This document shows, piece by piece, positions 58,912-59,211 of a stretch of 64,000 bases of DNA (position 1 is its first letter; the number at the start of each line of letters is the position of its first letter). The notes beneath the pieces are model-generated. The model saw only the letters and a program-made list of their open reading frames with translations. It was not told where the DNA came from and made no database searches. Position numbers and translations under genes: made by a program. This DNA is from Escherichia phage NJ01. The stretch is taken from sequence record NC_018835.1. One strand, 5' to 3'.

Positions 58912-59211
58912 TTACCACTCCTTACCGGTTGTAATCGTAGAGCCACCACACCACAACGCTGTATCAATCACAACATTGTCTGGTGTAGACTTCTCTTCGT
59001 TGATAGAAGGGTTAGCATTAGAGCAGGTTGCTCCGTTCCAGCGCATATCAATCTCACCAGAAGGAACCTTCTCACCTTTATGCCAGCGAGATACACAAAT
59101 ACCATCCACTGCTACTGCACACCATCCATCAGGACGGCTCTGTACGCAGCCTGTAAGGGCCACACAGATAAGGAAGATACAGATTAAGGATATTACACCA
59201 CCCCAACTCAT
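58912..59211 (-). CDS. lipoprotein (candidate superinfection-exclusion / receptor-masking protein)
   Basis: Signal peptide with lipobox LTGC; GGAGG SD 8 nt before second ATG; Cys-rich mature part. Confidence 0.5.
   Translation of the reverse strand: MSWGGVISLICIFLICVALTGCVQSRPDGWCAVAVDGICVSRWHKGEKVPSGEIDMRWNGATCSNANPSINEEKSTPDNVVIDTALWCGGSTITTGKEW

Follow-up and report, generated by a model that had tools for sequence, protein, structure and literature searches.

A diverged Rtp45-type lipoprotein encoded in the early region of Escherichia phage NJ01 is a candidate LptD-directed superinfection-exclusion factor

A small early-region gene of Escherichia phage NJ01 (NC_018835.1) encodes a lipoprotein that, judged by its sequence, belongs to the same family as Rtp45, the lipoprotein of siphophage Rtp that is described as its superinfection-exclusion (SE) protein; it is a new and diverged member of that family and does not represent a new type of system. 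The 64,000-nucleotide stretch of DNA analyzed here (the window) contains this gene and also encodes a DUF6453 protein homologous to the receptor-binding protein (RBP) of Rtp. We consider it probable, at roughly 60%, that the lipoprotein, as a product of the early leftward operon, binds LptD(E) and blocks RBPs of the DUF6453 type, which would lead to superinfection exclusion and to protection of the progeny. An earlier note made from the DNA letters had proposed a receptor-masking or superinfection-exclusion factor; that idea gains support here, and the homology to Rtp45 together with the DUF6453 homologue sharpens it to a factor that is likely LptD directed.

A Megablast search with positions 58000..60500 returned 93 phage records, all of them from Escherichia or Shigella podophages of about 75 to 78 kb, and where the records give a taxonomy, it is Gordonclarkvirinae, genus Kuravirus (phiEco32-like phages of the C3 morphotype). 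Phage 172-1 is the nearest relative for the genes studied here. The lipoprotein open reading frame (ORF) runs on the minus strand from an ATG (59211..59209) to a TAA stop codon (58914..58912) and encodes 99 amino acids, exactly where the earlier note had placed it. The sole in-frame alternative start, a GTG at 59217, falls inside the Shine-Dalgarno sequence, and a TAG shuts the frame 4 codons upstream; we therefore take the ATG to be the start of the lipoprotein. An uninterrupted, full-length version of the ORF is present in 95 phage records, and its dN/dS ratio against three orthologues is 0.2 to 0.3. Together with a Pfam match described below, these observations establish that the gene is real, beyond chance.

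The first 21 residues, MSWGGVISLICIFLICVALTG, form a hydrophobic leader (9-residue Kyte-Doolittle means of up to 3.7) that ends in the L-T-G of the predicted lipobox L19-T20-G21-C22, in which the codon for Cys22 occupies 59146..59148 and the cysteine is invariant in the family. The sequence thus fits the predicted signal peptide and LTGC lipobox of the earlier note. Atypically for a lipoprotein signal peptide, the n-region is devoid of Lys and Arg; this feature is invariant in the Kuravirus homologues, and all members of the family outside Kuravirus have MKK-like starts. The residue at position +2 is Val and not Asp, and outer membrane sorting is therefore expected under the established +2 rule of the Lol pathway. 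The mature part, previously described as a Cys-rich domain of about 80 residues, has 78 residues and five cysteines, namely C22 (predicted to be lipidated), C31, C39, C63, and C88. The features of the gene, its product, and the associated loci are collected in Table 1.

Table 1. Coordinates of the lipoprotein gene, its parts, and associated features in the window
Feature	Coordinates	Strand	Basis or remark
Tail needle	12345..13313	+	Orthologue of phi32_20 / SU10 gp18; Pfam PF09327 at 93.7 bits; SU10 assignment
DUF6453 protein, 344 aa, presumed cognate RBP	13315..14349	+	Orthologue of phi32_21 / SU10 gp19
CDS of 99-aa prolipoprotein, stop codon included	58912..59211	-	ORF list, sequence, PF24052, 9RPS_D, phi32_106
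Conserved C-terminal tail, GGSTITTGKEW	58915..58947	-	Aligns with the ...GSKEW(N) end of Rtp45
Variable insertion, residues 63-88, between Cys63 and Cys88	58948..59025	-	Alignments A1 and A2
Conserved core, residues 22-60	59032..59148	-	Alignment A2, identity to the Rtp45 core, description of the Rtp45 structure
Signal peptide, residues 1-21	59149..59211	-	Hydropathy profile and sequence; invariant in aligned Kuravirus homologues
Shine-Dalgarno sequence, AGGAGG	59217..59222	-	Read from sequence; 5 nt ahead of the lipoprotein ATG
tRNA-Arg(TCT)	59231..59305	-	ARAGORN; same strand, directly upstream of the lipoprotein gene

The lipoprotein gene sits between the tRNA gene, whose end is 19 nt from the start codon, and an ORF for a soluble protein of 53 residues, and the synteny is kept in phiEco32 according to its annotation. 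The phiEco32 orthologue, phi32_106, is annotated as a "putative phage lipoprotein." Experiments on phiEco32 have assigned its rightward cluster of small genes to the early class, which the host sigma-70 RNA polymerase transcribes leftward (PMC8948821), and the early genes of SU10 are CDS 69-125, a range that includes the number 106, with the proviso that numbering differs between the two phages. On the basis of the phiEco32 and SU10 literature, the lipoprotein gene is assigned to the early block, in agreement with the early placement claimed before. A scan of the 57- to 64-kb region found 14 sigma-70-like sites, compared with 19 in shuffled sequence, and gave no convincing promoter; consequently, none was assigned to the gene. 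A terminator-like hairpin is present upstream of it at 61217..61192. The label "lipoprotein" in the record of phage PE006 stands on the adjoining 65-aa ORF, which has no signal peptide, and we regard it as an annotation slip.

Two further proteins had been listed as secreted, and one of them kept that description. The product of 59315..59623 (minus strand) has a Sec-type signal peptide (MKQKHFIISTLLLMTTIGIISVNS/AE), a GTG start codon after GAGG, and two cysteines; it matches phrog_23590 (unknown function), has been found in no more than 10 records, in each of them next to the tRNA gene, and is an accessory exported protein. The product of 7720..7938 (plus strand), on the other hand, is the holin and not a secreted protein, as it is 98.6% identical to phi32_16, matches a PHROG holin family (E = 4.8e-50), and has one N-terminal transmembrane segment.

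Family membership of the lipoprotein is indicated by a match to the Pfam family PF24052 ("Phage lipoprotein family") at 116.1 bits (E = 6.8e-34; Pfam cut-off, 27 bits) that spans profile positions 1-80 of 80, and by a match to phrog_4281 in PHROG (E = 2.2e-33). An NCBIfam search with the protein gave no match. When all PDB sequences were searched with phmmer, the one genuine match was chain D of 9RPS (E = 1.5e-13), which is Rtp45 (UniProt Q333D9), solved by cryo-electron microscopy with Shigella LptDE-LptM (PMC12685063). Designed armadillo-repeat proteins in the same search were discarded as spurious, their scores being summed sub-threshold repeat matches with no significant stretch. The family is small: a search of 1.8 billion representatives yielded 15 genuine clusters at 50% identity. 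Two other proteins from the representative search, P0014 (1,775 aa) and P0025 (577 aa), are repetitive and unrelated to it. Among the distant members, one (P0011) occurs only on contigs under 1 kb, and another (P0010) is encoded on an unrelated 50-kb phage contig and has no DUF6453 gene within 6 kb.

The Rtp45 structure provides a frame for reading the lipoprotein of NJ01. Rtp45 is located at the periplasmic interface of the outer membrane, where LptE and LptM flank it; residues 30-35 are paired with LptD residues 318-323, with a disulfide between Cys30 and Cys38, and its long hairpin extends up the LptD lumen, so that extracellular loop 4 (EL4) is moved by up to 20 A and binding of the RBP is blocked (PMC12685063). 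The account of exclusion by Rtp45 on which we draw throughout is the one described in that study (PMC12685063). The mature parts of the two proteins are 47% identical and the cores 50% identical. Core motifs comprise Cys22, RPDGWC31...GIC39 (corresponding to Cys30-Cys38 of Rtp45), and the hairpin W..G.KVPSGEIDMRW.G. C22, G29, C31, C39, and G60 are invariant in an alignment of 21 family members (A2), and G37, G46, G52, D55, and G60 are invariant or nearly so among family members. We infer that C31 and C39 would likewise form a disulfide in the NJ01 protein. An AlphaFold 2 (AF2) model for which 10 close homologues served as input was of unusable quality (pLDDT, 45; pTM, 0.22), and AF3 complex predictions were wrong even for Rtp45, according to the authors of its structure (PMC12685063).

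Between the hairpin and the C-terminal tail, the NJ01 lipoprotein carries an insertion of about 26 residues that is absent from Rtp45, and the pair C63/C88 that bounds it is restricted to the Kuravirus proteins and three metagenomic relatives. In comparison with phiEco32, the insertion has a saturated dS of 1.79 and a dN/dS of 0.26, whereas dS is 0.29 for the core and 0 for the signal peptide. The saturated dS combined with the low dN/dS identifies the insertion as a cassette swapped by recombination between Kuravirus alleles and kept under purifying selection, not as a decaying tail. Within the early block, the lipoprotein is 72.7% identical to its phiEco32 orthologue, and its neighbors are 95 to 99% identical to theirs.

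In small siphophages, the rtp45-type lipoprotein gene lies directly upstream of the rtp44-type RBP gene, beside the gene for a J-like protein, and this type of RBP/SE locus has been tied genetically to LptD (PMC8594841). Because rtp45-type genes adjoin RBP genes in these phages, we searched the window with Rtp44. A tblastn match was found at 13426..14259 on the plus strand (E = 4e-14; about 24% identity), inside an ORF whose product matches PF20051 (DUF6453) at 86.7 bits (cut-off, 25 bits; Rtp44 itself scores 379 bits). Among PDB sequences, the sole match of this product was chain C of 9RPT (E = 6.4e-9, residues 55-334), which is the RBP of phage Oekolampad bound to open LptDE. An AF2 model of the DUF6453 protein built from 29 homologues (pLDDT, 84; pTM, 0.84) gave the same chain as the only significant Foldseek match in the PDB at E below 0.001 (E = 1.2e-11; TM score, 0.80 on the target). 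With only about 24% identity to Rtp44, the receptor specificity of the protein is not assured. Its presence in the same genome as the lipoprotein suggests LptD as a candidate for the final receptor of Kuraviruses.

The location of the DUF6453 gene is consistent with a role in the tail. Its start codon lies 1 nt past the stop codon of the needle gene, as read from the junction sequence, and the needle contains a lambda-J-type Phage_Tail_Tip domain (PF09327; about 12822..13082); the J-like proteins of Rtp, SH6, and T1 terminate in this domain as well. The distal end of the J-like protein is where the separate RBP of siphophages is thought to be attached (PMC8594841). The tip domain of the needle is presumed to be the docking platform of the DUF6453 RBP. 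A DUF6453 relative with 44% identity was found on a 100-kb metagenomic contig in the gene order short fiber, nozzle, needle, DUF6453 protein, and transglycosylase. In comparison with phiEco32, the DUF6453 protein is 61% identical, and the short tail fiber, nozzle, needle, and transglycosylase are 96.5 to 98.5% identical. Both the lipoprotein gene and the DUF6453 gene are under purifying selection, and both products are hot spots of divergence, as expected of host-interface proteins.

The two gene families also occur together in other phages. PF24052 and DUF6453 genes adjoin in Rtp, SH6, and pSf-1 and, by coordinates, in CEB_EC3a, UDF157lw, PC2, WFI, and L-h 1M (several of which are Dhillonvirus or Rogunavirus records), and in Klebsiella Weberviruses a distance of about 10 kb separates them. 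Among the 97 Kuravirus-type records with a needle gene, all have the DUF6453 gene and 95 have the lipoprotein gene. The FhuA-dependent phage T1 has neither a PF24052 gene nor a DUF6453 gene, and the same locus there holds Cor and two unrelated ORFs. In the window, the two genes are not adjacent, with the lipoprotein gene at 59 kb and the DUF6453 gene at 13.3 kb. Co-variation of lipoprotein and DUF6453 alleles, expected of a cognate pair, was absent among Kuraviruses, since identities of the two proteins to those of the window are 97% and 62.5% in XT32, 96% and 72% in IMEP8, 95% and 62% in Bas90, and 98% and 100% in 172-1. This lack of co-variation is compatible with a blocker that acts on the conserved periplasmic face of LptD, but it lends no support to a cognate pair.

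Virion data from SU10 also bear on the role of the DUF6453 protein. The SU10 structure paper lists its orthologue gp19 (343 aa) as "in virion: no," not detected by mass spectrometry, and gp19 is also missing from the 2014 shotgun proteome, in which the three-copy needle protein was detected. The phage therefore may not display this RBP. A single copy of gp19 that co-migrates with the major capsid protein might escape detection, and a DUF6453 monomer would be invisible on the C3-averaged 10-A map of the needle; both results still count as real negatives.

The following course of events is proposed for an infected cell. As read from the sequence, the prolipoprotein would be exported through Sec, lipidated at Cys22, cleaved by signal peptidase II, and delivered by the Lol pathway to the outer membrane, in its inner leaflet. 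Homology to Rtp45 suggests that it would then bind the periplasmic and lumenal side of the lipopolysaccharide (LPS) translocon LptD(E), where the disulfide-stapled C31-C39 segment would pair with an LptD strand and the beta-hairpin (residues about 40-60) would reach up the barrel lumen and displace EL4. RBPs of the DUF6453 type could no longer dock on LptD blocked in this way. A cell has about 400 to 600 copies of LptD, and from the gene content of the genome, these would be closed both to the needle-associated DUF6453 protein of the phage itself and to LptD-dependent siphophages. With so few targets and an early gene preceded by a consensus Shine-Dalgarno sequence, rapid saturation is possible. 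The outcome would be superinfection exclusion, and progeny would be kept from adsorbing to debris. LptD would in this scheme be the phage's own receptor, and we keep this step conditional because reviews describe Kuravirus receptors as "not yet identified" and because the RBP homologue went undetected in SU10 virions.

Comparison with known systems places the NJ01 lipoprotein close to Rtp45, with which it shares the PF24052 domain, a predicted lipobox, Cys-x7-Cys, RPDGWC, a VP.GE.D.R(Y/W).G hairpin, and a ...KEW end, and each of the two genomes also encodes a DUF6453 RBP homologue. The differences are that Rtp is a siphovirus whereas the phage studied here is a podovirus, that the Kuravirus gene lies in the early block by a tRNA gene and about 45 kb from the RBP homologue whereas rtp45 is directly upstream of the RBP gene, and that the Kuravirus protein adds the 26-residue insertion with its second Cys pair and a signal peptide without Lys or Arg. 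The SE gene of Oekolampad (bas18_0026) and the rtp45-like genes of LptD-dependent Dhillonvirus and Drexlerviridae phages belong to the same family and show the same pairing with DUF6453. The Oekolampad protein is 35% identical to Rtp45, a distance comparable to that of the Kuravirus protein. Unlike the Kuravirus gene, these genes are part of the RBP locus, where they follow the J-like gene, and their products have no second Cys pair.

Other exclusion lipoproteins resemble the NJ01 protein in outline. T5 Llp is also an early, small, outer-membrane-anchored periplasmic lipoprotein that alters the extracellular loops of a receptor from inside, but its target is FhuA and its action is allosteric, whereas Rtp45 displaces the loop sterically (PMC12685063); Llp was not among the PDB matches of the NJ01 lipoprotein, even at E values of up to 10. 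Cor (T1, phi80, and N15) is likewise a small SE lipoprotein, directed at FhuA and encoded at the RBP locus of T1-like phages, but its mature domain is unrelated and its partner RBP is not of the DUF6453 type. A link from Cor to the family was rejected, as T1 Cor scores 17.7 bits against PF24052, under the cut-off of 27, and only over residues 1-26, the signal peptide; T1 Cor and SH6 gp50 have identical signal peptides. The Pseudomonas N4-like podovirus DEV recognizes O-antigen first and LptD second by means of a J-like fiber and a downstream RBP; according to its authors, no podovirus had been proposed to use LptD before (PMC12892993). In the DEV fiber (gp56-gp55-gp54), the J-like protein is a trimer, and the separate RBP is encoded just downstream and is translationally coupled (PMC12892993). 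The Kuravirus pair of needle and DUF6453 genes has the same layout, as compared by description and not by sequence, whereas DEV differs in having the extra adaptor gp55 and in that no SE lipoprotein has been reported for it.

Some of the evidence presented above would also fit a lipoprotein that serves against competitors only. LptD would then be blocked against the LptD-dependent siphophages (Rtp-like, Dhillonvirus, and others) with which the phage has the sewage/gut niche in common, the Kuravirus itself would not use LptD, and the DUF6453 protein would have a role outside the virion. Such a reading would account for the failure of two studies to detect gp19 in SU10 virions, the independent assortment of the lipoprotein and DUF6453 alleles, the position of the lipoprotein gene, which has early accessory-type genes around it and is distant from the tail genes, and the mapping of spontaneous Kuravirus resistance mutants to O-antigen loss. 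Because lptD is essential, however, it would be missed by loss-of-function resistance screens (PMC8594841), and the DUF6453 gene, which none of the 97 records lacks, shows translational coupling to the needle gene in the late structural operon and is alone there in being hyper-variable, as would be expected of an RBP; we therefore consider exclusion of competitors alone unlikely. It is also conceivable that the same fold is directed at another outer membrane protein or envelope component, which in place of LptD would be the Kuravirus receptor. The insertion absent from Rtp45 is highly variable and could alter the target, SE lipoprotein cassettes are known to swap at one locus (Cor in T1 versus PF24052 in SH6), and the DUF6453 homologue is only distantly related to the LptD binders, at about 24% identity. 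Yet the part that contacts LptD (the disulfide segment and the hairpin) is the best conserved, at about 50%, the insertion lies after it, and LptD is the receptor of all DUF6453 RBPs whose receptor is known, so a different target seems decidedly unlikely.

Two further explanations set receptor masking aside, wholly or in part. If the lipoprotein acted on the host through LptDE, its main purpose could be to modulate or stop the insertion of LPS and O-antigen or to change properties of the outer membrane, and exclusion would be a side effect. An Rtp45-type hairpin in the LptD lumen, between LptE and LptM, could indeed hinder the passage of LPS, and the phage depends on O-antigen as its primary receptor. 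We rate such a take-over as very unlikely, given that LPS already on the surface would not be removed within one lytic cycle, a point that the BASEL authors also make with regard to O-antigen modification, and that co-overexpression of Rtp45 with LptDE in E. coli was possible (PMC12685063). The small size of the lipoprotein and its cysteines, the n-region without positive charge, and a lysis cassette (holin at 7720..7938 and endolysin at 7967..8455) in which no spanin gene was seen could instead bring to mind an o-spanin, or else a protein that stays uncleaved and anchored in the membrane and has nothing to do with receptor masking. Either role is barely credible for an early-block gene that about 51 kb separates from those for holin and endolysin, with no i-spanin or membrane-anchored partner adjacent to it, and with strong, specific homology to Rtp45 and no match to spanin families in Pfam, PHROG, or the PDB.

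Exclusion directed at LptD leads to a broader proposal for the genus. In the current model of Kuravirus adsorption, O-antigen is contacted by the long fibers and then the short fibers engage, with the needle touching the membrane. We tentatively suggest, at a confidence a little below even odds, that Kuraviruses (Gordonclarkvirinae) dock on LptDE as the terminal receptor after O-antigen and that they have taken over a siphophage recognition set (the J-type tip domain in the needle, the DUF6453 RBP, and the Rtp45-type lipoprotein), now split between the late structural and early operons, with the lipoprotein as the cognate exclusion factor. Our literature search found no paper connecting Kuraviruses with LptD or with an exclusion lipoprotein, and the value added here is that the link between the lipoprotein and the DUF6453 protein makes LptD a testable candidate for the Kuravirus receptor. 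Kuraviruses are common coliphages of broad host range that resist restriction-modification and are considered for therapy, and LptD, being essential and conserved, is an attractive target for phages and drugs. If the proposal is true, the NJ01 protein would be a second, diverged LptD-binding lipoprotein whose natural insertion would make it a useful probe of the translocon, and exclusion genes need not adjoin the RBP gene, which would matter for the annotation of phage genomes.

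The lipoprotein gene and the adjacent tRNA-Arg(TCT) gene lie directly downstream of an exported-protein gene that is carried by just 10 phage records and is absent from phiEco32. The 53-aa open reading frame (ORF) that follows the lipoprotein gene (MTIEELIRTLEILSVDCGPEA...) has no equivalent at the same position in phiEco32 or pEC-N1203-2Af.1, and among the three small early ORFs with paired CxxC motifs, the 57-aa member is only 50% identical to phi32_107 of phiEco32. A strong terminator-like hairpin also lies in the early block, on the upstream side of the lipoprotein gene; transcripts must either pass through this hairpin or begin downstream of it.

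Coordinates of the features discussed, in the window unless another record is named
Feature	Location	Strand	Remarks
Exported protein, 102 aa	59315..59623	-	Sec signal peptide, GTG start, two Cys, phrog_23590
53-aa ORF	58749..58910	-	start 1 nt past lipoprotein stop, TAATATG
Three small early ORFs	59642..59851, 59860..60033, 58081..58254	-	paired CxxC motifs, zinc-ribbon-like
Terminator-like hairpin	61192..61217	-	11-bp stem, 6 GC pairs, T run
Lysis cassette	7720..8455	+	holin, endolysin
DUF6453 gene	13315..14349	+	
P0010	L010 6001..6285		second Cys pair; Logan SRR28250349 contig, 50 kb
Cor, T1	L013 29623..29850		
gp50, SH6	L006 3492..3722		

No obvious spanin pair was found in the lysis cassette; its 72-aa holin weakly matches an Rz-like spanin PHROG (E = 0.027). 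The tail module is 96.5 to 98.5% identical to that of phiEco32 except for the DUF6453 protein (61%), the gene for which is the sole hyper-divergent one of the module. Residues 121 to 140 of this protein (RANRNYGITFSNSADYFSISDSG) are its best conserved stretch, yet nowhere else does its AF2 model have low confidence.

In the record of phage PE006 (PQ812250), the label "lipoprotein" has been put, by an annotation slip, on a 65-aa ORF (3496..3693) that has no signal peptide; the genuine Rtp45-like gene is unannotated at 71606..71902. Among metagenomic relatives of the lipoprotein, P0010 lies on a different phage-like contig, surrounded by KilA-N, TerB, ProQ, PRPP synthetase, and NAMPT genes, and no DUF6453 gene was found within 6 kb of it. 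Another relative (P0011/P0005, the former on L008 and L009) combines a long ECBP2-type insertion (YRERDMETQANWKKSDFISRA) with an ordinary signal peptide (MKT...), which suggests that mature-domain cassettes have been exchanged among phage lineages. T1 Cor, the FhuA-directed superinfection-exclusion lipoprotein, and SH6 gp50 have an identical signal peptide (MKKLITIIAAAFILTGC), whereas their mature domains are unrelated. Between T1 and SH6, the entire cassette of receptor-binding protein and superinfection-exclusion genes is exchanged at a single locus, with the signal peptide retained.
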